Below, piece by piece: positions 3,743-54,107 of a DNA stretch of 64,000 nt. Below the pieces are notes generated by a model that saw nothing but the letters and a program-made list of their open reading frames with translations, made no database searches and had not been told where the DNA came from. A program made the translations under genes and the position numbers. Within the stretch, counting starts at the first letter, position 1. Each line of letters begins with the position of its first letter. The DNA comes from a virus, in IMG/VR virus record IMGVR_UViG_3300032579_000531, positions 14,033 to 78,032 of that record. The stretch is one strand, 5' to 3'.

Positions 3743-4037
3743 GAACGCGAATCTCTCTTACATTAGCTACCTTAAAGGCACGCCATTGAGAACGGTCCAA
3801 ACACCACACACTCAGAGTTTCTGGCTTGTATAGTCGTGTAGTTTGAAATTCTTCTGTAACTACACGTTGTGGCATTGCTTCAGTACGCAAGGTACAAGGC
3901 ATTGTGCGTAAGGTACCATCTACTTTAGTGAATGTAACTTCACAATCGTGTTCGTTGAGTAGATGCCTAAGTTCGCGGTTGCGAGCATCCAAGTCTAGGC
4001 CTTCTACAGTCTCGGTATATCTAATTCCAAATGTCAT
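3735..4037 (-). CDS. SH3/Sm-like (WYL_2/DUF2693-type) phage protein
   Basis: VTFTKVDGTLRTMPCTL...WRAFKVANV pattern. Confidence 0.7.
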   Translation of the reverse strand: MTFGIRYTETVEGLDLDARNRELRHLLNEHDCEVTFTKVDGTLRTMPCTLRTEAMPQRVVTEEFQTTRLYKPETLSVWCLDRSQWRAFKVANVREIRVLG

Positions 4038-7640: not shown

Positions 7641-7659
7641 TTACGGCTCCTGTTTATTT

Positions 7660-7700
7660 ACTATACAACTATTATACATTAAATGGATTTAATGGACAAC
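7660..7700 (-). promoter_or_regulatory. repeated early promoter element
   Basis: TTGTCC-17-TATAAT followed by TTGTATAGT. Confidence 0.75.
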
Positions 7701-7704
7701 CACT

Positions 7705-7899: not shown

Positions 7900-7917
7900 A
7901 CACCCCCCTTGTTATTC

Positions 7918-7960
7918 ACTATACAACTATTATAACATTTTGGGAATTAATGGTCTACCA
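7918..7960 (-). promoter_or_regulatory. repeated early promoter element
   Basis: TAGACC-ATTAATTCCCAAAATGT-TATAAT-AGTTGTATAGT. Confidence 0.75.
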
Positions 7961-13381: not shown

Positions 13382-14229
13382 TTCTTCATCCAATCTACGT
13401 AATTTTTGTTCCACTCAGCGGGATCATTGAATATGTCCTCACACAAACTGTGATGACGTGCTTTTGAATCTCGTGTAAACTCTACAACAAAGCGACCAAT
13501 TTTCTTTGGATCTTTAAACATACCAAAGTTATCGGGGAACTCTGTTTTAAGTTGTTCGTAAACATCTAGGTTAGCAGTAAAGCCATTAATTTCCATAATA
13601 GTCTTTAGTGCAGCAATACTTGAGTTAGCGGCTGTACACTTGATACTGCCGTTAACTGCGGCCAGCATAGTCATGTCGCCAGCTTGCCATTCTGTATAAG
13701 GGATTTCGTATTCCAAGTCGTGCCAAAAGTCGTGCGGTAGTATATCTTGGTTGCCGTTCCACATCCACTTAGGATGGCGGCTTTCTACAATAATGTGATC
13801 ACCTCTATGTGCTAAGTGTCTCATAAACCAAGCATGGTCGTGGTGGCCAAATAATACACCCCAACAAAAGATAATATCATATTTTTCATCATTACCAAGA
13901 AAGAACTCTGTTAAACTTTGGTTAATGATTTCCCAGTTATTATCTTTATGATACTTAGTTAATAGTTCAGTTGCCGTTTCGCAAAACTCTGGACTAATCT
14001 CCACACCTGTGTAACTTGCGGCACCATTGCTTAAACACCAATCGCCTGTTTGTCCAATGAAGCTACCGATATCTAATATACGTTTATTAAGTAATCGCTC
14101 GGGAGGCAATAGCCATTCGTGTTTTTTAATTGTAATGTTAGGGTTCATTGGAACGCCACACTCTGGTGGACGATTCGCTCTAAAGTCTTTTTCCAAGAAC
14201 TCAGGATGTTGTTTGAAGGAGTTTATCAT
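13378..14229 (-). CDS. class I SAM-dependent methyltransferase
   Basis: RILDIGSFIG, YTGVEIS, YDIIFCWGV. Confidence 0.8.
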   Translation of the reverse strand: MINSFKQHPEFLEKDFRANRPPECGVPMNPNITIKKHEWLLPPERLLNKRILDIGSFIGQTGDWCLSNGAASYTGVEISPEFCETATELLTKYHKDNNWEIINQSLTEFFLGNDEKYDIIFCWGVLFGHHDHAWFMRHLAHRGDHIIVESRHPKWMWNGNQDILPHDFWHDLEYEIPYTEWQAGDMTMLAAVNGSIKCTAANSSIAALKTIMEINGFTANLDVYEQLKTEFPDNFGMFKDPKKIGRFVVEFTRDSKARHHSLCEDIFNDPAEWNKNYVDWMKK

Positions 14230-16849: not shown

Positions 16850-16916
16850 ACTATAACAACAGTATAGCATTTTGGGAATTAATGGTCAATTCGAAATAGT
16901 GTGGGATTTTTGCAAC
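16850..16916 (-). promoter_or_regulatory. early promoter plus GTTG-N8-CAAC-like box
   Basis: TTGACC-17-TATACT; box 16901-16916. Confidence 0.7.
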
Positions 16917-22047: not shown

Positions 22048-22977
22048 TTATTTAGTGTGTGGTACCAACGCAGGTATGGTTTCTATTCCACGTGCTCTTG
22101 CGGCTGTAACTCTGTGGTTTCCGTCAAGTACCCAGCCCTCTGCATCTGCTACTACAGGGCGATTCTTAATGTCGCTTGGGGTGATGTTTTCAACGTGATC
22201 CCAGTCAATGTCAATGACACGACGGTAAGGGTCATCTTGATGTACATATTCAGGAGTTTTTAAATCTGCCACGGGTATATTTTTTAATAACCAAACTTTA
22301 TGTGCTAAGATAGGTTTAGGCATATGGTATTCATCATGTATGCCTTGTACATACTTTAACACCTGACGACTAGTATACATACCACCTTTACGTGACACAT
22401 CAATTAATTCTTCATCTTCTGACACTTCTAATTTCTTAGGTTCTATCTTGCCGGCAAGTGCTTTTGATAATTGATGTAAGGTATGTTTATAATCTTTGTC
22501 TTTGTGCAATATACCAATACCACCATTGGCTTCCCAAAGTTTGATGTTGGTATCCCAGTCATCTATTAAGATGTTGGGCGTGCCGTTGGCCTGGCGAGCA
22601 AATTTAAACTTTTCGTGATCAAATATAATTGCTTGCGGTTGATGTGCTCTTAGATATTTCTTTAACCAATCAGATTTTCCCTCTGAACTATCCTCAACAT
22701 TACTCATTAAGGGGCTACTCAAAATACTATACTTGTCTGTTAATTTTAAAATACCTGTCATTAAGCGTCCAGCATTTGGTAAGGGCGGTAGCTCTGCAAA
22801 AAAGCCAGGCTTCTTTGCAATTTGATCGACCCCTAATTCTTTACGGTGTATTTCGCGCCAGTATGCAACATCGTGCGCTTGTGCAACTTCGCCAAAGAAA
22901 TCGGCTAGGACGCCGTCCATATCAACATAGATTATGGGACGGGTTTCGTATTTGGATTTAAACTCTGTTGACCTCAT
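22048..22977 (-). CDS. HAD 5'(3')-deoxyribonucleotidase fused to a ParB/Srx-like domain
   Basis: IYVDMDGVLADF, ILIDD; C-terminal VLDGNHRVTAA. Confidence 0.85.
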   Translation of the reverse strand: MRSTEFKSKYETRPIIYVDMDGVLADFFGEVAQAHDVAYWREIHRKELGVDQIAKKPGFFAELPPLPNAGRLMTGILKLTDKYSILSSPLMSNVEDSSEGKSDWLKKYLRAHQPQAIIFDHEKFKFARQANGTPNILIDDWDTNIKLWEANGGIGILHKDKDYKHTLHQLSKALAGKIEPKKLEVSEDEELIDVSRKGGMYTSRQVLKYVQGIHDEYHMPKPILAHKVWLLKNIPVADLKTPEYVHQDDPYRRVIDIDWDHVENITPSDIKNRPVVADAEGWVLDGNHRVTAARARGIETIPALVPHTK

Positions 22978-23003
22978 AGTGTATTTATGAGGTAGTATCT
23001 TGC

Positions 23004-23558
23004 CTAGCCGTATAATTCCTGGTACCAGGATAAGTTCTTTTGCAAGAACATATGGTACATATTACGCTGTTTAATGCAGATCTCTTTGTTAATAGTGATC
23101 CAGTCTGCAGGTGCTAGTTTAACTTCTACTTCACTATCACCGTAGCAGTTTTTAGTTTCTAGCCCATGCTTATGACATAAGTGTTGTATGGGCTTGTTCC
23201 ACCCTAAACAATGCATATAAAGCTCTTTATATCTGCGGTTTCGTGCCCAGAATATGGCCTCTTCTAGCATGGTGCCAGCAATGCCCTGTCCGCGGAAGTC
23301 TTCGTGTACAATGACACCAAACTCCACAGCACGATTGCTTATTGCAATATGAATAGTACCAGCCCAACGATTACCTTCTCGAGCTACCAGGAAGTAGTGT
23401 TCGTCTGGATTGCCAATGATACGATCCATTAGGCTATCAATAACATACTGACTGCCTGCTACGCCAAAATATAACTGACGAGTTTCTTCGTCCTGAATTA
23501 ATAACCAGTCGCGATACTGTGAGTAGTCTTTAACGGGTAAAAATTCAGTAATGATCAT
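23004..23558 (-). CDS. GNAT acetyltransferase
   Basis: EFGVIVHEDFRGQGIAG, N.PIQHL..KHG. Confidence 0.85.
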   Translation of the reverse strand: MIITEFLPVKDYSQYRDWLLIQDEETRQLYFGVAGSQYVIDSLMDRIIGNPDEHYFLVAREGNRWAGTIHIAISNRAVEFGVIVHEDFRGQGIAGTMLEEAIFWARNRRYKELYMHCLGWNKPIQHLCHKHGLETKNCYGDSEVEVKLAPADWITINKEICIKQRNMYHMFLQKNLSWYQELYG

Positions 23559-23559
23559 T

Positions 23560-23652
23560 TTAGTACCACTGTCCATTGACCATACGTGCTTTAACTGTAC
23601 GAGTACGTGCTTCTACCCAGGCCGCATATAGTTCTTTTAAAAATTCACGCAT
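23560..23652 (-). CDS. 30-aa peptide
   Basis: MREFLKELYAAWVEARTRTVKARMVNGQWY; TAATG-coupled to the upstream ORF, 1-nt gap to the GNAT start. Confidence 0.55.
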   Translation of the reverse strand: MREFLKELYAAWVEARTRTVKARMVNGQWY

Positions 23653-23792
23653 TATAAACCTCTGAATTCAAAATACTTTTGCCAATATTCTGCATCGGCA
23701 TGTGTTTTTGGTTCTTTAGCTGTTACAAACTGTTCTAAGGCGCTTGGTTGTGTTACAAAAAACTTGGTAAGTTCTTTTAATAGTTTTGACAT
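23652..23792 (-). CDS. 46-aa protein, DUF3563-like
   Basis: GAGGAG RBS; MSKLLKELTKFF...LEQFVTAKEPKTHADAEYWQK. Confidence 0.6.
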   Translation of the reverse strand: MSKLLKELTKFFVTQPSALEQFVTAKEPKTHADAEYWQKYFEFRGL

Positions 23793-23832
23793 TTTGTGTC
23801 TCCTCATGGTTTCTACTTAGTATTAAGTATAA

Positions 23833-23859
23833 ACTTATTTATCATGCAGAGCAACATTT
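23833..23859 (-). promoter_or_regulatory. PhaR-like TGC-N3-GCA box adjoining a TAAATA late promoter
   Basis: AAATGTTGC-TCTGCATG-ATAAATAAGT; second copy at 30874-30900. Confidence 0.6.
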
Positions 23860-23867
23860 ATTCAAAA

Positions 23868-24122
23868 TTATTTTACCGGTTTAAGTAACCATCCCTGTCC
23901 AGAATGTTCATGTAGCCACGAGTAGAATGGTGCAGGAATGTTTAGGATACCGTTGTTGTGTGCTAGATATTGATATTTGGGCAGTATTTCGTAACCGTTT
24001 ATTGTAGTCGGCTGTGTACTATCTAATGTTATGGTATCAAATAATCCCGCACTAGTTTCTATTCCATCTATTAGAATAGTTAGTTGAGTCTTAGTAGCCA
24101 GCAGATCTGAGTAGTTCTTCAT
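23868..24122 (-). CDS. hypothetical protein
   Basis: Overlaps the end of the radical SAM gene. Confidence 0.6.
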   Translation of the reverse strand: MKNYSDLLATKTQLTILIDGIETSAGLFDTITLDSTQPTTINGYEILPKYQYLAHNNGILNIPAPFYSWLHEHSGQGWLLKPVK

Positions 24123-25365
24123 ATTCGGGTAAGTACCTTAGGATGCCATTGTTTCTACTGGCTTCTAATAATTTAATGTAGTCAACAAGAGCAGGCAGTC
24201 TAAATGATTCGTCTGGTTGATTTTCCAAGTAATCTATATAACTACGAGCATCTTGGATAATCTGTTGCTGGGCAACTGCGGGATGTCTGGTGTTTATAAT
24301 TTGTTCAGTGTTTGTGCTATCGTATCTATTGATCCAGCTAGATAATCTTTCTATCACCTGCGGTCTAACTGCCATGGGCAGTACACTAGGACGCATAAAT
24401 GCTGGGTCGTTTAAAAAATTACAACTCTCAACAGCTATATTATGATTATAAGCATATTCGTATACAGTATCAAGATGCCATATAGTAAAGATAGTTGGAG
24501 TAATTCTTAACTGCACTAACCAGCTGGATTCCTGTGCAATTTCTATCCACTGCTCCATGATTTTAACAGAGTCGTCGATATTGCCGCCATATCTAACGTA
24601 ATCGTTTAATGGATGAATACATTCAATACTCATGCCAAGATTAACCTGCTCAAACTGTTTGAGTAAATCAACTATACTTTGATCCCATACAGTAAGGTTA
24701 GTAGTAAACCCCACTGTAATTGTTTTATGCAAATTTTCTTCTATTAGAGTTTCTAATATTCGTTTAAAGCCGGGAGTGATTAATGTTTCACCGCCGATAA
24801 AGTGTAGGTATTTAATTGTTGTACTTGCTCGTAATGCATCAAGGAAGGTATTGAACTTGGCTGGATCTTCGCACCAGCTGGCACGCGGAGTTTGGTCAAT
24901 TATTCCTATGCGTTTAAATTCTGATGCCAACTTGCTACTACTTGCTGGGTCACAGAATATACAAGCACTATTACAAAAGTTGCCTAGGTCAATTTGCCAG
25001 TCTTGCGGAGTTTGCTTTGTGACTGTATTTTTAAATTCATCAACCCAGGGACTTGATAACATGGTGTTAGTGAAGTCATTCAATTGAACACCAGTTTTAA
25101 GTAATTGTTTTTGACGACCACTTACTTTACCGTGCGCTTCCATTTGATAACATTCTGTACAACCTAACAATTTTTCCCCACGTAACATAGACTCACGTAC
25201 AGGAGCCATACCTTGTTGGAAAAACTCTAACGGAGCTGTGTCAGCAATGCTGGGCAAACTTGTTCTGTCCTGCTTGGTTGCCCAACGACAATATTCATAA
25301 TGCCCAGAGTTATTGATTCTCATATGGAACCAAGGGCTCGGGCAAAATGAATCTTTAAATGTCAT
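24091..25365 (-). CDS. radical SAM protein with N-terminal twitch/SPASM-like Cys region
   Basis: CNSACIFC, GGETL, TTN; N-terminal CPSPW..C..C..C. Confidence 0.88.
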   Translation of the reverse strand: MTFKDSFCPSPWFHMRINNSGHYEYCRWATKQDRTSLPSIADTAPLEFFQQGMAPVRESMLRGEKLLGCTECYQMEAHGKVSGRQKQLLKTGVQLNDFTNTMLSSPWVDEFKNTVTKQTPQDWQIDLGNFCNSACIFCDPASSSKLASEFKRIGIIDQTPRASWCEDPAKFNTFLDALRASTTIKYLHFIGGETLITPGFKRILETLIEENLHKTITVGFTTNLTVWDQSIVDLLKQFEQVNLGMSIECIHPLNDYVRYGGNIDDSVKIMEQWIEIAQESSWLVQLRITPTIFTIWHLDTVYEYAYNHNIAVESCNFLNDPAFMRPSVLPMAVRPQVIERLSSWINRYDSTNTEQIINTRHPAVAQQQIIQDARSYIDYLENQPDESFRLPALVDYIKLLEASRNNGILRYLPEYEELLRSAGY

Positions 25366-25982
25366 CGTTTAGTAACAACCTCGTCTGCAAGTCCATATGC
25401 AACTGCTTCTTCCGCTGACAGGAATGTGTCAAACTTCATAGCTTCGTAAAGTTCATCATACTCTTTGCCTGCGGTGTTGTGACGTGCATACAGTTCAGTT
25501 AGACGTTTATTAATACGAACGCTTTCTTCGAATGTACGCTTTGCATCTTCGAACTGCAAGTCTTGTACGTGTACACTACCACGTGTACCTGGAGTACCTG
25601 AACTAACACGATGGATCATTGTGCGTGATTCTGGAAGAACTATTCGCTTACCTGCGGTGCCTGCCTGTGCAAGGAAGCTACCCATGGAGCAGGCCTGTCC
25701 TAATACTATAGTGGATACATCAGGTTTGATAAACTGCATTGTATCGTAGATAGCTAGGCCTGCTGTAACGCTGCCACCAGGGCTGTTGATGTAGAATAAT
25801 ATGTCCGCATCTGGATTTTCACTTTCTAAAAATAACATCTGGGCAACAATTAAACTAGAACTGTGTTCGTTTACGTCTGTGTCCAGCATAACAATACGGT
25901 CACGCAACAAACGACTATAGATGTCGTAAGCACGTTCGCCATTGGCAGTTTTTTCCAGAACGGTAGGTACAAAATTAGGCAT
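25362..25982 (-). CDS. clpP: Clp protease proteolytic subunit
   Basis: DIYSRLLRDRI, YINSPGG, GQACSMG, MIH, GLADEV. Confidence 0.95.
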   Translation of the reverse strand: MPNFVPTVLEKTANGERAYDIYSRLLRDRIVMLDTDVNEHSSSLIVAQMLFLESENPDADILFYINSPGGSVTAGLAIYDTMQFIKPDVSTIVLGQACSMGSFLAQAGTAGKRIVLPESRTMIHRVSSGTPGTRGSVHVQDLQFEDAKRTFEESVRINKRLTELYARHNTAGKEYDELYEAMKFDTFLSAEEAVAYGLADEVVTKR

Positions 25983-26035
25983 AACTTTCCTTAGTTGAAT
26001 TGATTGTTTATTGTAACAGAAAAGCTATTGTGTGT

Positions 26036-26524
26036 CTAGCACTTTGTAAAGTCTTGATGTTTAAACCAACGCTTCTGACCGTGTGCTGTTTTTAAGTTAA
26101 GTCCATAGTATTCAAAGCGTTCGCGGAACATAAAGAAATCTGGACCATGTGCGCCACTGTGTTTATCCATGATACCGCCACATGCTTCAAAACGGTGTAT
26201 GTCCCATTGGTACTGGTGAACCATTTCGTGTGCCAGGGTTTGCAAGAACCATTGTTGGCAAAACCATTTATCCATGATTTTAATAGTGCAGTAACTACCG
26301 GTATGGTCATAGTCGTTTTCCCATTGGCAAAATCCCCAGGTCTGTCGACGTACACCCTGTTCTATTTCGGGCTTGCGTAAACGGTTATCAAACAGGTAAC
26401 GATTGCAGATATTATATGCGTAGTTTATATCTGCGTAGCTAGGGCGGAACTGTAAACGTCGCTGGTACGTTATACTGGGAAGTTCTGCTTCCATTAATGC
26501 ACGGATTGGATTCGGTCTAGCCAT
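26036..26524 (-). CDS. SprT-like zinc metalloprotease
   Basis: TLAHEMVHQYQ...HGPDF; start MARPNP after GAGGG. Confidence 0.8.
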   Translation of the reverse strand: MARPNPIRALMEAELPSITYQRRLQFRPSYADINYAYNICNRYLFDNRLRKPEIEQGVRRQTWGFCQWENDYDHTGSYCTIKIMDKWFCQQWFLQTLAHEMVHQYQWDIHRFEACGGIMDKHSGAHGPDFFMFRERFEYYGLNLKTAHGQKRWFKHQDFTKC

Positions 26525-26527
26525 TGA

Positions 26528-26571
26528 AATGCCCTCGCTCAAGTATTTATATAATACTCCTGGAGGGCATT
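26528..26571 (-). promoter_or_regulatory. late promoter TATAAATA inside an RBS-sequestering hairpin
   Basis: AATGCCCTC...TATAAATA...GAGGGCATT-TCA-ATG. Confidence 0.7.
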
Positions 26572-26599
26572 AACTACTAGTTTATACTACATAAACGGC

Positions 26600-27331
26600 T
26601 TAGTTATTGATTGTTACTTGTCCTACAACTGCACCAGGTTTCTGGATTGCTTCTGCCCTACGTGCTTGATACTCGGCATTGTTTACAGGCATTAGGTTAA
26701 GTGTACTGGTACTGCCATCGGGTTTGACCACACTAATTTCTTGACCTTTTTGTGTAGCTACCGGGGTCACTTCTGCATCACCCAAGGGTTTGTTACCTGT
26801 AATTTCGTCTAGTTCTTTAAAGGCTTCCTTGGCACCACGCTTGGTGTCTTGATTACTTCGAGCACTAGTCGAAAGTGCAACCAATACATAAGATCGAATA
26901 CGTGTACCTTCTGCTACATGCTTCATCTCTACAGTTTCTACACCAGAGATATCAATGTCCGGGCAAATACTGCGGATTGCCATTTCGCTTTGTTCTGTAG
27001 TGGTAGTTCCGTTATCAGCGGAATACACTTTAGTTTGACTACGGACCTTGCCGCCTGCACTTGTACAGATCTTGGCGTATGCAATAGTCTTGGCCTTCAT
27101 ATCAGCCATACCAAAGTCGCCACTGGTAGCAGTACCATTTTCAAATACTACACCGGGTGACTTGGGCAACTTGAACATCCACTCGGGTGCCTGGTTGATC
27201 GCGGACTGCATATTAGCAGATTGCTGTGCTGATTGTAGTTGAGCTTGTTTAGTATAATTTGACTGAATCGAATTAGTACCACAGGCACTCAATAAACCTG
27301 CTACTGCACCTACAATTAATAACTTCTTCAT
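26600..27331 (-). CDS. lipoprotein (LPP20-like)
   Basis: Lipobox LLSAC; APEWM..P...A..KA...A; TTGACA-17-TATACT promoter at 27367-27395. Confidence 0.7.
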   Translation of the reverse strand: MKKLLIVGAVAGLLSACGTNSIQSNYTKQAQLQSAQQSANMQSAINQAPEWMFKLPKSPGVVFENGTATSGDFGMADMKAKTIAYAKICTSAGGKVRSQTKVYSADNGTTTTEQSEMAIRSICPDIDISGVETVEMKHVAEGTRIRSYVLVALSTSARSNQDTKRGAKEAFKELDEITGNKPLGDAEVTPVATQKGQEISVVKPDGSTSTLNLMPVNNAEYQARRAEAIQKPGAVVGQVTINN

Positions 27332-27381
27332 TTTTCATCCCTTTAGGGTTTAGTTACGATAACAACAGTATAACATTATGG

Positions 27382-27954
27382 TTAATATTTGTCAATCACT
27401 TGCCATTTTGAATTTGGTGCAGTAGACAAACGACATACAACTCCTTGATACAACATCAAATTTTGGTTACGACTATCACGCTCAACGAACATACGACACT
27501 GAGTACGTTTGTACCAAAAATACTTACGCTCAGGAACATAGGTATGTAAGTCAGTTTCGGACTCCCATACTATATCCCCAATTCTAACCGGATGAACACG
27601 AATATCCGGTAGATCACTACAGACCATTTGACTATCGGCATGCACTGAACTTGGTGCTTCTTCTAACATATTGCCACGGTGTTGATCTAATGCTTGAACA
27701 CACGCTTCTGTTTCGGTTGTGCCATATCCAATACCTTCTACAGTTTGCCAATCGTTGTTGATGTGTAGGCGATACTTTAATACGCACTTCTGACCACGAC
27801 CGTCGGGGCCGACCAATTTCTGTATATCAACTGGGCGGCTGTTAATTACTTGTTGAGATATATTTGTGCTAATTCTAGTGTAGCAGTCAGCCCTGGGTTG
27901 AGTACAGTACGCCGCTCCTGCCACTGCGATTGCAGATATAATTAGTAGTTTCAT
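27382..27954 (-). CDS. secreted Cys-containing protein
   Basis: N-terminal signal peptide, several Cys. Confidence 0.7.
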   Translation of the reverse strand: MKLLIISAIAVAGAAYCTQPRADCYTRISTNISQQVINSRPVDIQKLVGPDGRGQKCVLKYRLHINNDWQTVEGIGYGTTETEACVQALDQHRGNMLEEAPSSVHADSQMVCSDLPDIRVHPVRIGDIVWESETDLHTYVPERKYFWYKRTQCRMFVERDSRNQNLMLYQGVVCRLSTAPNSKWQVIDKY

Positions 27955-28232
27955 TTATTGTACCTATCGGGGTTGTTGCACCCTATACGTAAACTCCAAA
28001 TAATAATTTTGGCTTTTTCGTTATAAGCACGATCTGATTCAGACATATCTTCGGGATTCTTATTCAGTGTTCCTAATAACTTCAATTGGTATTCGACTTG
28101 CTGTGTTATTTGGTCAATCTGTGGACAGTTTGCATTGCTAACCTGGATACTAGCCAATTGGGTGTAACTAACCTGTGGACGGCTAGCACAACCAACTAGG
28201 CTAATAGCTAAAAGGATAGCAACAAGTCGCAT
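27951..28232 (-). CDS. lipoprotein
   Basis: MRLVAILLAISLVGC lipobox. Confidence 0.7.
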   Translation of the reverse strand: MRLVAILLAISLVGCASRPQVSYTQLASIQVSNANCPQIDQITQQVEYQLKLLGTLNKNPEDMSESDRAYNEKAKIIIWSLRIGCNNPDRYNK

Positions 28233-28585
28233 TAGAACTGTGCCTTGGCCAAACGGGCTTCGCGATTGCGTTCCCAACTTGCGTCTAGGTTAGCACCTTG
28301 TCTAAATAGTTTATCGTATGCTTTTTCGGCTACTCCATAATGCTCATGAGCTCCGGACTTTTCAAAAAAGTCGTAGTCAATGGTCCAGCGCGGAATGATA
28401 GTTACCCTAGCATCTGCATCATGCAAGATCGGTAGTTGTTGCCACTGGAACAATAACCGTTGAATAGTCTGTTCCCATTGTGTCTTGGCCCATGGTGTCT
28501 TGGCACGGGCTAATGCTTCGCGAGCCGCATCCAACCGTTGACCCAGTACTTCCATTTCATCACCATAAAAACGATAGTCTTTCAT
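28232..28585 (-). CDS. hypothetical protein
   Basis: AAGGAG RBS. Confidence 0.7.
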   Translation of the reverse strand: MKDYRFYGDEMEVLGQRLDAAREALARAKTPWAKTQWEQTIQRLLFQWQQLPILHDADARVTIIPRWTIDYDFFEKSGAHEHYGVAEKAYDKLFRQGANLDASWERNREARLAKAQF

Positions 28586-28598
28586 TTCTTCTCCTTGA

Positions 28599-28985
28599 TT
28601 AATAGTTACGACCTAGTACAACTTGTACCCGTTCATATACTTCGTCTTCTTCTGCTGTGTATGTATGGTCTTTGTCCCGAAACATAAACTTGCTCATTAT
28701 TTTGTGGAATTCATCAAATACTTTAAGTCGAGATGGATTTAATGTAACCTTGTCGTTTAGCAACCACGACTTTACTACACGCAACGTATCCACAGGGGCA
28801 AGGTCTTTATCCATCAATATAGTAAAACATTCATCTATTGTAGAGTCAGATTGTCCCCGTAATAAGTCACCGGCTTCTCGTACCATATCCTCTACTGTAC
28901 CATGCTTCATAATGAACTGTGCCGAGCGTCCTTGCAAACTTGCCCAGGCAAACTCTTCTTCGTAAGTTAGTGTTCTATCAGTCAT
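28599..28985 (-). CDS. hypothetical protein
   Basis: Start moved to MTDRTL. Confidence 0.7.
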   Translation of the reverse strand: MTDRTLTYEEEFAWASLQGRSAQFIMKHGTVEDMVREAGDLLRGQSDSTIDECFTILMDKDLAPVDTLRVVKSWLLNDKVTLNPSRLKVFDEFHKIMSKFMFRDKDHTYTAEEDEVYERVQVVLGRNY

Positions 28986-28986
28986 A

Positions 28987-29523
28987 TTAGATCTCAATGT
29001 TACTGTTTTTAGCCTTATTGTAAAAAATATGATCACCAATTTGTCCTGCTTCGTGCCGAGTGTCGACCCATTTTGGATCACGGATATATATGGCATGATA
29101 ATACAAACTATGCATCAAGCCACTGACACGATAACCGGTTAAAACTTTTTCTGCTACTTGACGGCTCTCTGCCCAAACTGTAGGATCAGGGTTTGGTAAC
29201 TTCTTTTGTAATGTCCACGAAAACTGAGACTTGGCATAAACTACCTTACAAACTGTATTGCCCCAGTGACCGGTCTTCAACCGATTTACTGTCACATGAG
29301 CAACCGCATACTTTCCCGGCGTGGCTTCTACTCCTGCTTCATAATACACGTTTTTAGTTAAACAGTCGAGATCGTTCTTGGTGTAGTTTACCTTTTCTGT
29401 AGTTTGAATAATGTCTGTAAGCTGATCTATCTTGTCCTCAACCTTGTCCATACGCAATTCTTGACGCAGGAGTAAGAGTGCAAGTAGAGTGCAAGCAATA
29501 ATAATTAAGTTACGGTTTGACAT
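28987..29523 (-). CDS. SleB/Hydrolase_2 cell wall hydrolase with N-terminal membrane anchor
   Basis: CLTKNVYYEAG, VAHVTVNR, QFSW, YYHA, IGDHIFY. Confidence 0.88.
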   Translation of the reverse strand: MSNRNLIIIACTLLALLLLRQELRMDKVEDKIDQLTDIIQTTEKVNYTKNDLDCLTKNVYYEAGVEATPGKYAVAHVTVNRLKTGHWGNTVCKVVYAKSQFSWTLQKKLPNPDPTVWAESRQVAEKVLTGYRVSGLMHSLYYHAIYIRDPKWVDTRHEAGQIGDHIFYNKAKNSNIEI

Positions 29524-29750
29524 TATCTATCCTGATTGTAGTCGTCGGCACCATCATTAAACTTTTCAGAAGCCAACAGATTAATTTGATCACCAAATTC
29601 CTCTTCGAGCTGTTCTAGCTCGTCGTCTGACAATGGTGTGCCATCTTCATACTCAGCATAGCTAAAAAATGCATCACAAAAGTCTGGATAGTCGTCAGCC
29701 TCAACGCCATCGACTTCTACATTTTTTACTCGACGTCCATTTAATTGCAT
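29523..29750 (-). CDS. small acidic protein
   Basis: DYPDFCDAF..A...DG..L.DDEL. Confidence 0.7.
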   Translation of the reverse strand: MQLNGRRVKNVEVDGVEADDYPDFCDAFFSYAEYEDGTPLSDDELEQLEEEFGDQINLLASEKFNDGADDYNQDR

Positions 29751-29754
29751 ATTG

Positions 29755-30084
29755 TTAAGCCTTTGGAATGTGATAAGTGATGCCCTGTGGGCTTGCAGAT
29801 TTTTTGTAACCCAATGTTTCGTAATCCGCTTCTAACAATTTTAAACTTGTACGGTCTTTAACTTGTGCCCGATCTACTTTAACTGCGATAAACTTTTTAC
29901 GATAGTTGATATGAATACCCTTGGCCCAGTAAACTAACTCTAACGCAAGAGCCATGCGATCTGCGGTAATTTTTTGTTTGTCTGAATAATGTGAAGATTC
30001 AACAATGTTACGCATACGGGCATCACGTGCGGCAGCAAAAGCATAGTAGCCTGCGGATTTTGTTTCTAGCTCTGTTGTTTTCAT
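29755..30084 (-). CDS. hypothetical early protein
   Basis: AAGGA RBS after an early promoter. Confidence 0.7.
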   Translation of the reverse strand: MKTTELETKSAGYYAFAAARDARMRNIVESSHYSDKQKITADRMALALELVYWAKGIHINYRKKFIAVKVDRAQVKDRTSLKLLEADYETLGYKKSASPQGITYHIPKA

Positions 30085-30103
30085 TTTTATTTCCTTTTGT
30101 TTA

Positions 30104-30173
30104 ACTATACAAGTATTATACTATTTTGGGTATTTTGGGTCAACCAAAAACACCGTTGTTTTTAAGCAACGGT
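30104..30173 (-). promoter_or_regulatory. early promoter plus ACCGTTG-N8-CAACGGT palindrome
   Basis: TTGACC(30143-30138)-17-TATAAT(30120-30115); palindrome 30152-30173. Confidence 0.8.
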
Positions 30174-30449
30174 TTTATTACGCTTTACTAGCATTTCTGA
30201 TAAAGAAGGGTTCATAACTAGTGAAACTTTAAGGGCATTGATTTTAGTTTTTAAGTTAGCAAGTACTAACTCTACTTCTTGCATAGACGAGTCCACTTGC
30301 AAATCTACAAAATATTGTGCTTTGTTTGCGGTGAATGCGGGATAAGTGTCTGCAACAATGCGAACAGAAACGGGAGTGTTAGAATACGGGCTACGCTTAA
30401 AAGTTACTTTTGCGTATAATGTACTTACAGGTGTATTTTTATAAAACAT
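30162..30449 (-). CDS. hypothetical early protein
   Basis: AAGGAG RBS; promoter TTTACC-17-TATACT at 30478-30506. Confidence 0.65.
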   Translation of the reverse strand: MFYKNTPVSTLYAKVTFKRSPYSNTPVSVRIVADTYPAFTANKAQYFVDLQVDSSMQEVELVLANLKTKINALKVSLVMNPSLSEMLVKRNKTVA

Positions 30450-30522
30450 ACTTACTCCTTTTAGTTACTATAGAGCTAGTATAGCATTTTGGTAATTTAT
30501 GGTAAACCAAAATTTGAGCCGT

Positions 30523-30547
30523 AAAAAAGCCCCAATTAAGGGGCTTT
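30523..30547 (-). terminator. intrinsic terminator
   Basis: aaagcccc-aattaa-ggggcttt with A6. Confidence 0.75.
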
Positions 30548-30568
30548 ATGTTAGTGTGTACTAACCTA

Positions 30569-30787
30569 TTACTTTGTTGCAAACATCTTGGTGAAGTCCA
30601 CTGATTTTGTAGACTCGGCTACTTGCTTGGCCAACTCTAAATTTGTTTCGTATACAGTCTTGGTAAAGTCTGCATAAGAGTCAACTAAAGTTTCTAAATT
30701 TGAGCGGATTGCTTTATCTTCAACGAATGTCAAAGGTTGCTTACTTGCTTGTGCTACTTGGTCGATTACGGATTTAAAATTAAACAT
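30569..30787 (-). CDS. phasin-like amphipathic helical protein
   Basis: MFNFKSVIDQVAQASKQ...LVDSYADFTKTVYETNLELAKQ; upstream TGC-N4-GCA box. Confidence 0.55.
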   Translation of the reverse strand: MFNFKSVIDQVAQASKQPLTFVEDKAIRSNLETLVDSYADFTKTVYETNLELAKQVAESTKSVDFTKMFATK

Positions 30788-30873
30788 TTTGGTTTTTCCT
30801 TTATTAAGCGAAATGTTATGTGAAGCCCAAACTATTTGGCACCTCACTGTTTCATACTATGTTTATAGTATAT

Positions 30874-30900
30874 ACTTATTTATGTGCGGTTGCAACATTT
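30874..30900 (-). promoter_or_regulatory. PhaR-like box adjoining a TAAATA late promoter
   Basis: AAATGTTGC-AACCGCAC-ATAAATAAGT. Confidence 0.6.
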
Positions 30901-30987
30901 TTATATTTTAATTTGCCCAAAAAAGGAATAAATATTGATGTAGTTCGCGATACTGGAAATATCCAACTACTCTAACATAAAAGGACT

Positions 30988-31515
30988 ATGTCAGCAATGT
31001 ATTTACACTATTACGTCTATGCCTATTTAAGAACCAATGGCACACCATATTATATCGGAAAAGGTAAGGGAACACGGGCATGGAAGCATTACAATGATGC
31101 TATACAGCCTCCCGCAGACTTGTCACGAATTATAATACTTGAACGGAATTTAACAGAATTGGGTGCGTTAGCCATTGAACGCAGAATGATACGTTGGTAT
31201 GGGAGAATAGATACGTCAACGGGGATTCTGCACAATAAAACAGATGGCGGCGATGGCGGGAGTGGAGTTAAAAAATCCAAAGAAACTAAACTTAAAATTA
31301 GCATAGCTCTTAGAAACAGATCAGCTGAAGCTCGTGCAGAAACTCGGGTAAAACAAAGTATAGCAGGGAAACAAAGAAAACACTCTGCGGAAACTCGAAC
31401 TAAAATATCAGAAGCAAATAAAGGCAAGTCAAAAATAGGTGGAATGACTGGCAAATTGCATTCCGAAGAAACTCGAGCTAAAATGAGTTTGGCGGCAAAA
31501 AATAGACGCCGATAA
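30988..31515 (+). mobile_element. free-standing GIY-YIG homing endonuclease with NUMOD3 repeats
   Basis: [23 protein letters not shown], HSxETRxKxS repeats. Confidence 0.88.
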
Positions 31516-37607: not shown

Positions 37608-38828
37608 ATGTTTTCCTTAGATAGATTCTATAATATACTTCATAATAATTTGATATCAAAATGTGCTAACGGCAAATCTATATACTTTTTTCCGTTCGGT
37701 ACATATGAAGACAAAGTTGTGTTGGCCAATAGCTTTAGCATCAATGACTACATAAACCCCATAAATGAAAAAGCCGATCGTCCGTTTTTTCAGTGCTATT
37801 TTGCTGACCAGGAACCGTATTATAATGAAACGTTTCCTATACTAAAAGATGCATTAATTCATCGAGATCATGTTATGCCAGATACTCGCATTAATATTTT
37901 GGCTAACAGTGAAAAATCCCAACTTAAAAATGATTTTGTAAAATCACAAAACTATTACGATTGGTATTATTTTTATCACGGATTTGTAGCATTAGATTGG
38001 TATAGGGATTTTCAGTATTTGACACCAGATTCATTTAATCGGTTTGATAAAGTATTTATATGTTACAACCATCTTATCTCAAAATATCGTTCCTATCGAT
38101 TGCACCTTGTTAGTAATCTTATAGATCATGATTTAATTAAGCATGGACGGGTTAGTTTATTTCTTGAAGATACACACGGTACGTGGGAAGAAGCTGTTTG
38201 GCATCCTGACACGCCGCTTGACACCCGTGCCCGTTTAAAAATATACAAGACATTACGCGGTGTAACTGACACATTAACAATAGATACTGTTACCCCCAAC
38301 GGTACATTGAGTGCTAATGTAAAATTTGATGATTTAACTAGTGCGTTATTCCATGTTGTTACGGAAACTGTTTACTTTCACGATAAACTACATTTAACCG
38401 AAAAGGTATTTAAGCCTATTGTTGCTAAAAGACCATTCTTCTTAGTAAGCACCCCGGGGAGCCTGGCATACTTAAAGAGCTACGGTTTTAAAACCTTTGA
38501 TCGTTGGATAGATGAAAGTTACGATACAGAACAAGATCATTATATACGCATAGAAAAAATCACAGAAGAAATAGCTCGATTATGTGCCATGGATCGCGGT
38601 GCATTAAAACAAATGCACTTGGAAATGCAAGAAATATTAGAATACAATTTTAATCATTTTTATAACAAGTTTAAAGATATTATAGTAGATGAGTTAGTTG
38701 ATAATTTTGAACACATACTTTGTCGGATCAACAATGGCCGACAACCTAATAATCATAGTAAGCATCATCAACGATTTGAACTTTCTCCAGAATACCTCCA
38801 GGATGTAAAAAAGCGCCTTAAGCAATAA
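37608..38828 (+). CDS. putative glycosyltransferase-like protein (TEKxxKPI family)
   Basis: HVVTET..HLTEKVFKPI..RPF...GFKTF..WIDESYD. Confidence 0.55.
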   Translation: MFSLDRFYNILHNNLISKCANGKSIYFFPFGTYEDKVVLANSFSINDYINPINEKADRPFFQCYFADQEPYYNETFPILKDALIHRDHVMPDTRINILANSEKSQLKNDFVKSQNYYDWYYFYHGFVALDWYRDFQYLTPDSFNRFDKVFICYNHLISKYRSYRLHLVSNLIDHDLIKHGRVSLFLEDTHGTWEEAVWHPDTPLDTRARLKIYKTLRGVTDTLTIDTVTPNGTLSANVKFDDLTSALFHVVTETVYFHDKLHLTEKVFKPIVAKRPFFLVSTPGSLAYLKSYGFKTFDRWIDESYDTEQDHYIRIEKITEEIARLCAMDRGALKQMHLEMQEILEYNFNHFYNKFKDIIVDELVDNFEHILCRINNGRQPNNHSKHHQRFELSPEYLQDVKKRLKQ

Positions 38829-38880
38829 ATACTTGTACATTAAAGAACAGCAACAAGCTGTCGAGATCGAGGAGCTATGT

Positions 38881-41869: not shown

Positions 41870-41876
41870 CAAGTAT

Positions 41877-42353
41877 TTATTTTATTTGAATTAGGTTATC
41901 TTTGAAAATACTCCAACATTCTTCCCAGGTCCAGTGTAGACTAGATTCTTTAACTTGTGCTCGATCTAGAGTTAAGCATTTACGAACAGCTTCTTCAAGA
42001 TCCCAATCCATACACCCGTTTACACCCGGCTCAATAATGTCTATAGGGCCTTGTACCGGAAATGCCGCTACTGGAGTTCCTTGTGCCATTGCTTCTATAA
42101 TAACTAAACCAAATGTATCTGCGCTACTTGGGAATACAAATACATCTGCTTGATTATAATAGTCTACTAGTTCTTGTCCTGATTTATACCCCACAAACTT
42201 AGCCCACGGTAACAATCTACGAGCATCTTTCATGTACGGCCCATCACCTACAATGACCAACGTATATTCTGTGGGATCTAATTCTGCTAAAGTTGCCAAC
42301 AAACTGCTGTATTTCAAAATAGCCGCCGCAGTCCTGTACATATAAACTAACAT
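41877..42353 (-). pseudogene. GT4 glycosyltransferase, C-terminal domain only
   Basis: IVGDGP, ADVFVFPS..DTFGLVIIEAMAQGTPV; N-terminal domain absent. Confidence 0.75.
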
Positions 42354-53768: not shown

Positions 53769-53875
53769 AGTTTGTATTTATTGAGTTTTAGCTCAGTAAT
53801 AATACTACAATAAATGATGTTTGTCAACAATTATGGTTACGATTCTTCTAAATAATATCCTGTTTGTATATTTAG

Positions 53876-54091: not shown

Positions 54092-54107
54092 AGTATGTTA
54101 TTTATCG

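Follow-up and report, generated by a model that had tools for sequence, protein, structure and literature searches.

In a 64,000-nucleotide (nt) stretch of viral DNA (here called the window; positions 14,033 to 78,032 of IMG/VR record IMGVR_UViG_3300032579_000531), two 27-nt elements on the minus strand precede, respectively, the gene for a 72-amino-acid (aa) helical protein and an operon that begins with the gene for a 46-aa DUF3563-like protein. With moderate confidence, we propose that both elements are sigma-70-type promoters for the host RNA polymerase, which are overlaid by an operator dyad of the PhaR type, and that this arrangement would gate the phasin-like and the DUF3563-like genes. 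This proposal is drawn from three independent comparisons, which were the conservation of the dyad among phages, the published PhaR motifs, and a blind scan of bacterial genomes. Hence, the phage probably ties the expression of a phasin-like protein and of a micro-protein operon to the carbon reserve of its host. A literature search brought up no description of phage promoters that are controlled by PhaR.

Two copies of a 27-nt element with sigma-70-type promoter geometry

The two elements share the form AAATGTTGC-N8-ATAAATAAGT, which is present in two exact copies, AAATGTTGCTCTGCATGATAAATAAGT at 23859-23833 (element 1) and AAATGTTGCAACCGCACATAAATAAGT at 30900-30874 (element 2). When up to three mismatches were allowed, these were the sole matches in the window, while none of 100 dinucleotide shuffles gave two, and the whole 78-kb contig contained no further match. 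A recheck of the sequence bore out the initial annotation in the position of the two copies and in the TGC-N3/4-GCA sequence inside each of them, which is TGC-TCT-GCA in element 1 and TGC-AACC-GCA in element 2. The genes following the elements were also correctly described there, with the 72-aa open reading frame (ORF) after element 2, and the 46-aa, 30-aa, and GNAT ORFs after element 1. The sequence ATAAATAA is found in both copies (23835-23842 and 30876-30883).

The identity between the copies extends past the 27-mer, which had been missed before. The hexamer TATACT is located one base downstream in each copy, at 23826..23831 in promoter 1 and at 30867..30872 in promoter 2, and its distance is 17 nt from TTGCTC (23849-23854) in element 1 and from TTGCAA (30890-30895) in element 2. 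This spacing of TATACT after TTGCNN is the reason to view each copy as a sigma-70-type promoter with −35 and −10 hexamers. In both copies the −35 hexamer coincides with the TTGC of a 17-nt box, which is ATGTTGCTCTGCATGAT (23841-23857) in element 1 and ATGTTGCAACCGCACAT (30882-30898) in element 2. Element 2 is located in a 140-nt divergent intergenic region. Both elements were at first read as plain promoters, and this reading was dropped after the comparisons with the phage families, the published boxes, and the bacterial promoters.

A palindrome over the −35 hexamer is conserved among phages

Orthologous loci were fetched by protein similarity and their upstream regions were then aligned, with the DNA motif not serving as a criterion. 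Further samples came from a pattern scan of IMG/VR and from a protein-led set of the sister subfamily, 25-45% identical. The data showed that the invariant part of the element is not the 27-mer but a dyad, the 17-base-pair (bp) sequence ATGTTGC-RNY-GCAACAT placed over the −35 hexamer, with 8+1+8 symmetry and the center near −30. The right arm of the dyad is the reverse complement of the left one, and its center obeys R-N-Y. A box matching at 14 or more of 17 positions was present in 53 of the 75 nonredundant regions upstream of the 72-aa family, at a fixed position about −92 to −102 from the ATG. A subset of 64 regions contained 12 perfect boxes and 13 boxes at 16/17, while only 1 of 1280 shuffles reached 14. 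A −10-like hexamer was found 16-18 nt from TTGCNN in 43 of the 53 orthologous promoters with a box. Perfect palindromes were also present among the orthologs of element 1, before the same gene family (L020, L081, and L051); the L003 ortholog of promoter 1 has no −10 hexamer and only ATAAATAAGT after the box. The 4-nt-spacer variant seen in element 2 (ATGCTGCGACCGCACAT) recurs in related phages in both orientations, as is expected of a protein-binding dyad.

In the motif-led scan of IMG/VR the element was found upstream of only two families and no other recognizable one, which were the 72-aa MF(N/T)F helical protein and an approximately 50-aa DUF3563-like protein with a coupled micro-peptide. 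Across many phages, the element is associated with this same pair of gene families, in agreement with the initial annotation. In G001, a 357-kb, 100%-complete relative, a single good site was detected, and it is located upstream of the 72-aa gene of this phage. The restriction to two gene families together with the single site of G001 indicates that the candidate regulon is tiny and specific.

A looser IMG/VR pattern with 14 fixed bases gave mostly chance matches, which needed filtering by context, and the search of relatives for the palindrome at three mismatches gave noise equal to the control, with the extra matches inside genes.

The phage palindrome corresponds to the boxes of bacterial phasin promoters

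The palindrome recognized by PhaR of Ralstonia eutropha is YTKNTGCRNYGCANMAR, in which positions 1-4 and 7 from the center are almost invariant (PMC12849132). The PhaR box of Sinorhizobium meliloti is YGC-RNY-GCR with AT-rich arms, and it flanks or overlaps the −35 hexamers of phaP1 and phaP2 (PMC12542648). The phage consensus ATGTTGCRNYGCAACAT agrees with the box of R. eutropha at 15/17 positions, including every strongly conserved one, and the two mismatches are the outermost positions, which are A/T in the phage and Y/R in the motif.

The phage-derived palindrome was also compared with the genomes of 185,579 prokaryote species, one genome each, and the first 120 matches, most of those listed being in Alpha- and Betaproteobacteria, were analyzed. 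Among the 144 ORFs flanking them, the commonest family was Phasin_2 (12 ORFs, best E 1e-29), and PHB_depo_C and Esterase_PHB occurred twice each, while a thiolase, a short-chain dehydrogenase, and a K+ transporter (K_trans) were singletons. The geometry of several of these phasin promoters (L166, L222, L234, L173, and L243) is that of the phage ones: the TTGC of the box forms the −35 hexamer and is followed by a 17-nt spacer and TATAxT. PhaR itself (PF07879, 99-109 bits) was encoded in 5/5 of the checked bacterial genomes, in each of which a phasin promoter carries a perfect box, while among 14 control genomes it was present in Caulobacter alone. In a sample of 401 genomes, taken from the class of one box-bearing genome, the box with at most one mismatch occurred at 238 sites in 133 genomes, whereas the reversed sequence, used as a control, gave 34 sites spread over 31 genomes (site sums tallied from the result table). 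The 133 genomes include two that are flagged as unpublished, G148 and G315, and the enrichment is independent of both. No DNA-binding or granule-binding domain of PhaR (PF07879, PF05233), PhaC, or polyhydroxybutyrate (PHB) esterase was found in the contig and four relatives, and therefore any PhaR acting on these promoters must be that of the host, whose own identity is presumptive.

The phage promoters can be set beside the PhaR-phaP circuit, as described for R. eutropha (Cupriavidus necator) and for S. meliloti (AniA/PhaR). They share with it the 17-bp dyad, the TGC-RNY-GCA core with T/A at +/−7, a box that extends over the −35 hexamer and into the spacer of a promoter of the sigma-70 type, and a small helical protein encoded downstream. 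They differ from it in that they belong to a lytic-type jumbo phage without PhaR, PhaC, or a depolymerase, and in that the products of the target genes are phage-specific and below the Phasin_2 threshold. Additionally, the second target, the DUF3563-like gene with its micro-peptide, has no known link to polyhydroxyalkanoate (PHA), and the window boxes are degenerate candidate sites.

Several other observations weigh against the assignment to PhaR. Each window box matches the phage consensus at only 14/17 positions; in element 1 a T at the R position breaks R-N-Y and the right arm is poor, and in element 2 the core is TGC-N4-GCA, with a 4-nt spacer. Compared to the R. eutropha motif, elements 1 and 2 have 4 and 5 mismatches, respectively, while the published criterion for a PhaR box is at most three mismatches to YTKNTGCRNYGCANMAR (PMC12849132). 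Within the contig alone, the boxes cannot be told apart statistically from the reversed control, with two sites at 14/17 or better as compared with one, and TGC-N3-GCA is not enriched in the intergenic DNA of the contig. No DUF3563-like ORF is located beside any of the 120 bacterial sites, and a DUF3563 gene from Ideonella, the only bacterial one examined, had no box; a DUF3563 search in 400 sampled genomes was empty, a result which shows nothing. The PhaR-type operator proposed in the initial annotation is supported by the phage consensus, the bacterial phasin neighbors, the co-occurrence with PhaR, and the restriction to two families, while the two window boxes themselves fit it less well.

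Other explanations of the elements

The dyad could be the operator of another dimeric DNA-binding protein recognizing TTGC-N3-GCAA, either a phage regulator or a different host factor, so that its likeness to the PhaR box would be convergence or mimicry. Jumbo phages encode many uncharacterized DNA-binding proteins, which could provide such a regulator, and the differences at the outermost positions and the core deviations of the window boxes would also be explained, as would the fact that the phage family profile has no bacterial homolog in 300 genomes. We consider this explanation quite unlikely, because in PhaR-encoding bacteria the identical 17-mer is a mark of the genes for phasins and PHB depolymerases, and because the promoter geometry equals that of the bacterial phasin promoters. 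Still less probable, in our judgment, is that the elements are a single strong constitutive promoter present twice, by duplication or convergence, on which no regulator acts and in which a TTGCAA-type −35 hexamer and an AT-rich spacer give rise to the dyad as a by-product. Both elements have a good −35 hexamer, a 17-nt spacer, and a −10 hexamer, and the degeneracy of the window boxes and a box score in the contig not above the reversed control are consistent with such an origin. The spacer of a sigma-70 promoter is normally not conserved, while here the right arm of the dyad, which is located in the spacer, continues to mirror the left one across proteins that are only 25-40% identical. The occurrence of the variant site in both orientations also argues against a by-product, as does the fact that the other sigma-70-type promoters of this phage use TTGAC and contain no dyad.

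The initial annotation placed its emphasis elsewhere, namely on a T4-type late promoter, ATAAATA, as the functional promoter, with the box gating late transcription. ATAAATA[AC] is enriched between genes, where 15 of its 35 occurrences fall while intergenic DNA makes up 8.5% of the contig, and its position is frequently 1-40 nt upstream of start codons, among them that of a virion structural gene; this enrichment and position fit a T4-type late promoter. When compared to the T4 late promoter TATAAATA, which is gp55/gp33-dependent, the window sequences GATAAATA and CATAAATA match at 7/8 positions, but this phage has G or C in place of the first T of the octamer. The location of ATAAATA beside or just downstream of a sigma-70-type promoter resembles the tandem early/late promoters of T4. 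Moreover, L003 and other DUF3563-type promoters have only ATAAATA, and no −10 hexamer, after the box. Among the 53 boxed promoters, however, TAAATA abuts the box in 29, is located downstream of the −10 hexamer in 4, and is absent from 20, while the sigma-70 geometry is kept in 43. The reported adjacency of box and TAAATA is thus true of the window and of many orthologs, but it is not general, and unlike the T4 late promoter, the motif is dispensable in many orthologous promoters. Because its position is variable or the motif is missing, it would be an optional second promoter and not the partner of the box. Late transcription is therefore the weakest part of the earlier interpretation, and we regard ATAAATA as the gated promoter as unlikely, though the sigma-70 and late readings can be combined as a dual promoter.

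The 72-aa protein is phasin-like

The gene following promoter 2 (30569..30787, minus strand) encodes a 72-aa protein that starts with MFNFKS. More than 190 clusters of this protein, grouped at 90% identity, are found at 70-93% identity, on contigs up to 380 kb; at 50% identity the family comprises about 44 clusters, all of them small and all viral by context, and a sister subfamily is represented by 367 loci in IMG/VR. AlphaFold2 with the family alignment predicted a helical hairpin with a confidence (pLDDT) of 87 and helices at residues 4-21, 25-61, and 65-69. The initial annotation had called the protein phasin-like, and the comparison with phasins gave signals that recur but remain below threshold. 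Phasin_2 (PF09361) was the only recurring Pfam family among the relatives (3 of 38 members, E at least 0.0086), and the two best-scoring relatives carry the same operator; also, LVDAQAxFxK was aligned to the conserved L..Q core of phasins in the same register in four hhalign runs. The nearest named ESM-Atlas clusters were Phasin_2, PHB_acc, and PHA_synth_III_E (0.81-0.87), which is a lead only. Like Phasin_2 proteins, the 72-aa protein is small, all-helical, and begins with MF.F.

On the other side, the window protein has no Pfam match at E<=1, and a six-frame search of the contig found no Phasin_2. The best relatives scored 23.0 bits (E 9e-5) and 19.4 bits against the Phasin_2 cut-off of 24.9, which no member of the phage family reaches, and the hidden Markov model registers of these two matches disagree. 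When family alignments A2 and A8 were compared with phasins using hhalign, the P values were 0.002-0.017, with a probability of only 3-14%. The phage protein is also shorter, with 72 aa as compared to 96-220 aa in the phasins found, and its hydrophobic moment is not above that of shuffles. A sequence-profile search of the PDB gave nothing below E 0.37, and Foldseek with the AlphaFold2 model gave nothing below 1e-3, the helical hairpin being an unspecific fold. The lack of a bacterial homolog of the family profile in the 300 genomes indicates that the gene is no recent capture of a host phasin. Hence, as judged from sequence comparison, the protein is to be described as phasin-like and not as a phasin, and the strongest case for its putative role at PHB granules, to which we infer that it binds, is its promoter.

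An intrinsic-terminator-like hairpin, read from the sequence as AAGCCCC-TTAA-TTGGGGCTT followed by a T run, is located directly after the 72-aa gene (30523..30546, minus strand), and a terminator scan gave a neighboring match at 30532-30516. Its position suggests that the gene is monocistronic. On the other side of the promoter, a GIY-YIG/NUMOD3 homing-endonuclease-like gene (30988-31515, plus strand) is transcribed divergently.

The 5′ leader of the 72-aa gene is conserved and predicted to be structured

The region between promoter 2 and the start codon (30788..30866, minus strand) was folded with RNAalifold together with orthologous leaders, which were those upstream in regions L004-L017 and L272-L351. 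For the 44 leaders compared, 12 pairs were predicted, 8 of which are supported by compensatory double changes. The main motif is the hairpin GAGGUGCCAAAUAGUUUGGGCUUC (about 30821-30846, minus strand), with 6+3 bp and an AUAG-type loop, and it is followed by a short helix in which CUYGC is paired with the Shine-Dalgarno sequence AAGGA(G). The leader has no match in Rfam, and a search of 22500-31500 against this database gave a single chance-level match only. The covariation suggests a second, post-transcriptional layer of control, and the pairing of the Shine-Dalgarno sequence could mean that the leader acts as a thermometer-like or translational-operator element.

Promoter 1 precedes a two-gene micro-protein module

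The first gene after promoter 1 encodes the 46-aa protein MSKLLKELTKFF... (23652..23792, minus strand; family alignment A3). Its description as DUF3563-like in the initial annotation holds only in part. The L003 ortholog matches DUF3563 (PF12086) over nearly its full length, with 16.4 bits and E 0.0088 against a cut-off of 26.9, and resembles a DUF3563 protein of Ideonella by eye, while the window protein itself has no Pfam match.

The second gene, for the 30-aa micro-peptide MREFLKELYAAWVEARTRTVKARMVNGQWY (23560..23652, minus strand), is translationally coupled to the first. In 9/9 phage loci examined (window, L003, L020, L027, L041, L045, L051, L098, and L121), an ORF of 29-39 aa overlaps the DUF3563-like gene at its stop codon. 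The product of this ORF shows a recurrent pattern, in which an amphipathic start is followed by basic residues and the C-terminus is usually an aromatic pair (WY, YY, or FY). By these comparisons, the DUF3563-like gene and the micro-peptide gene form a micro-protein module of two genes that is conserved. The last gene of the element 1 operon in this phage encodes a GNAT acetyltransferase (23004..23576, minus strand; Acetyltransf_1, E 9.3e-15), the start of which overlaps the end of the micro-peptide gene. Conservation of the module does not extend to this gene, as a SprT-like gene is found at the same place in other phages.

A model for reading of the host carbon reserve

We infer that the host PhaR binds the box and represses both promoters, from which the following sequence of events can be proposed. 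In a host with no free PHB surface, PhaR dimers would occupy the box and the promoters would be blocked. Once PHB granules are forming, PhaR would be drawn onto them and both promoters would open, which would allow the synthesis of the 72-aa protein, probably a granule-coating, phasin-like one, and of the DUF3563-like protein with its micro-peptide and, in this phage, GNAT. In some phages, the abutting ATAAATA may provide an additional late promoter of the T4 type, which the design would not require.

In an extended form of this model, the boxes would limit the mini-phasin and the micro-protein module to PHB-rich cells and the leader would be a second gate, possibly responding to temperature, while the numerous box copies on phage DNA under replication, along with granule-bound mini-phasin, would pull PhaR off host promoters, so that host depolymerase genes would be derepressed and stored carbon freed for phage replication. 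Taken as a whole, this chain of events is speculative and rather improbable.

If the host PhaR does bind these promoters, the virus would read the bacterial carbon-store sensor through the own repressor of the host, and the phage would need no regulator gene of its own for this sensing. The infection programs of abundant freshwater jumbo phages would then be linked to the storage of PHB, a major sink for carbon in lakes and wastewater. Such a link would also be a first lead to the function of a small protein that is very widespread and highly conserved.

Origin of the contig and other sequence features

The window is part of a 78-kb IMG/VR viral contig with a CheckV completeness of 19%. Close homologs of its genes are located on contigs of 290-380 kb, and therefore the contig is a fragment of a jumbo phage. 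The window DNA is present in many metagenomes, all of which are from lakes or freshwater among the sequencing runs listed, and none of these runs is an RNA data set. The source is thus an uncultured freshwater (lake) jumbo phage. Neither megablast of 10 kb nor tblastn of the 72-aa protein found a cultured relative among GenBank phages. The UV endonuclease of the contig is only about 45% identical to those of jumbo phages of Erwinia, Dickeya, and Aeromonas, and therefore no host can be deduced from it.

Some features of related promoters were recorded in addition. L092 contains, around 3900-4010, a phasin-like gene whose TTGACT/TATAAT promoter holds a CTGC-GGC-GCAG dyad in its spacer. This dyad is the alphaproteobacterial flavor of the PhaR core, and the flavor of the box may follow the lineage of the host. 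An inverted repeat, TACTGAGT ... ACTCAGTA, borders the box in DUF3563-type promoters, and the motif GTAGAAAC(C/A)NTGAG recurs on either side of it; these flanking sequences were seen around the element in L027, L045, L081, L083, and L092, and in the window at 23808-23826.

Directly upstream of element 1 (23868-25982, minus strand), an 84-aa ORF is located together with genes for a 424-aa radical-SAM enzyme and a ClpP protease, a combination which looks like a peptide-modification set.

At six places, each on the strand of its own gene, ATAAATA[AC] ends 1-7 nt before the start codon (22981-22988, 26543-26550, 38825-38832, 41873-41880, 53774-53781, and 54098-54105). If these sites are T4-type late promoters, their mRNAs would have almost no leader or none at all; if they are not, the role of the motif would be a translational one.

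The TTGAC promoters without a dyad form a separate class of strong sigma-70-type promoters, found at 7641-7704, 7900-7954, 16861-16889, 27367-27395, 30085-30161, and 30450-30568 (minus strand). They share TTGAC(C/A), the spacer end CCAAAAT, and TATA(A/C)T, and four of the six also have a conserved (T/C)TATAGT box just downstream. This class probably represents the early promoters of the phage.

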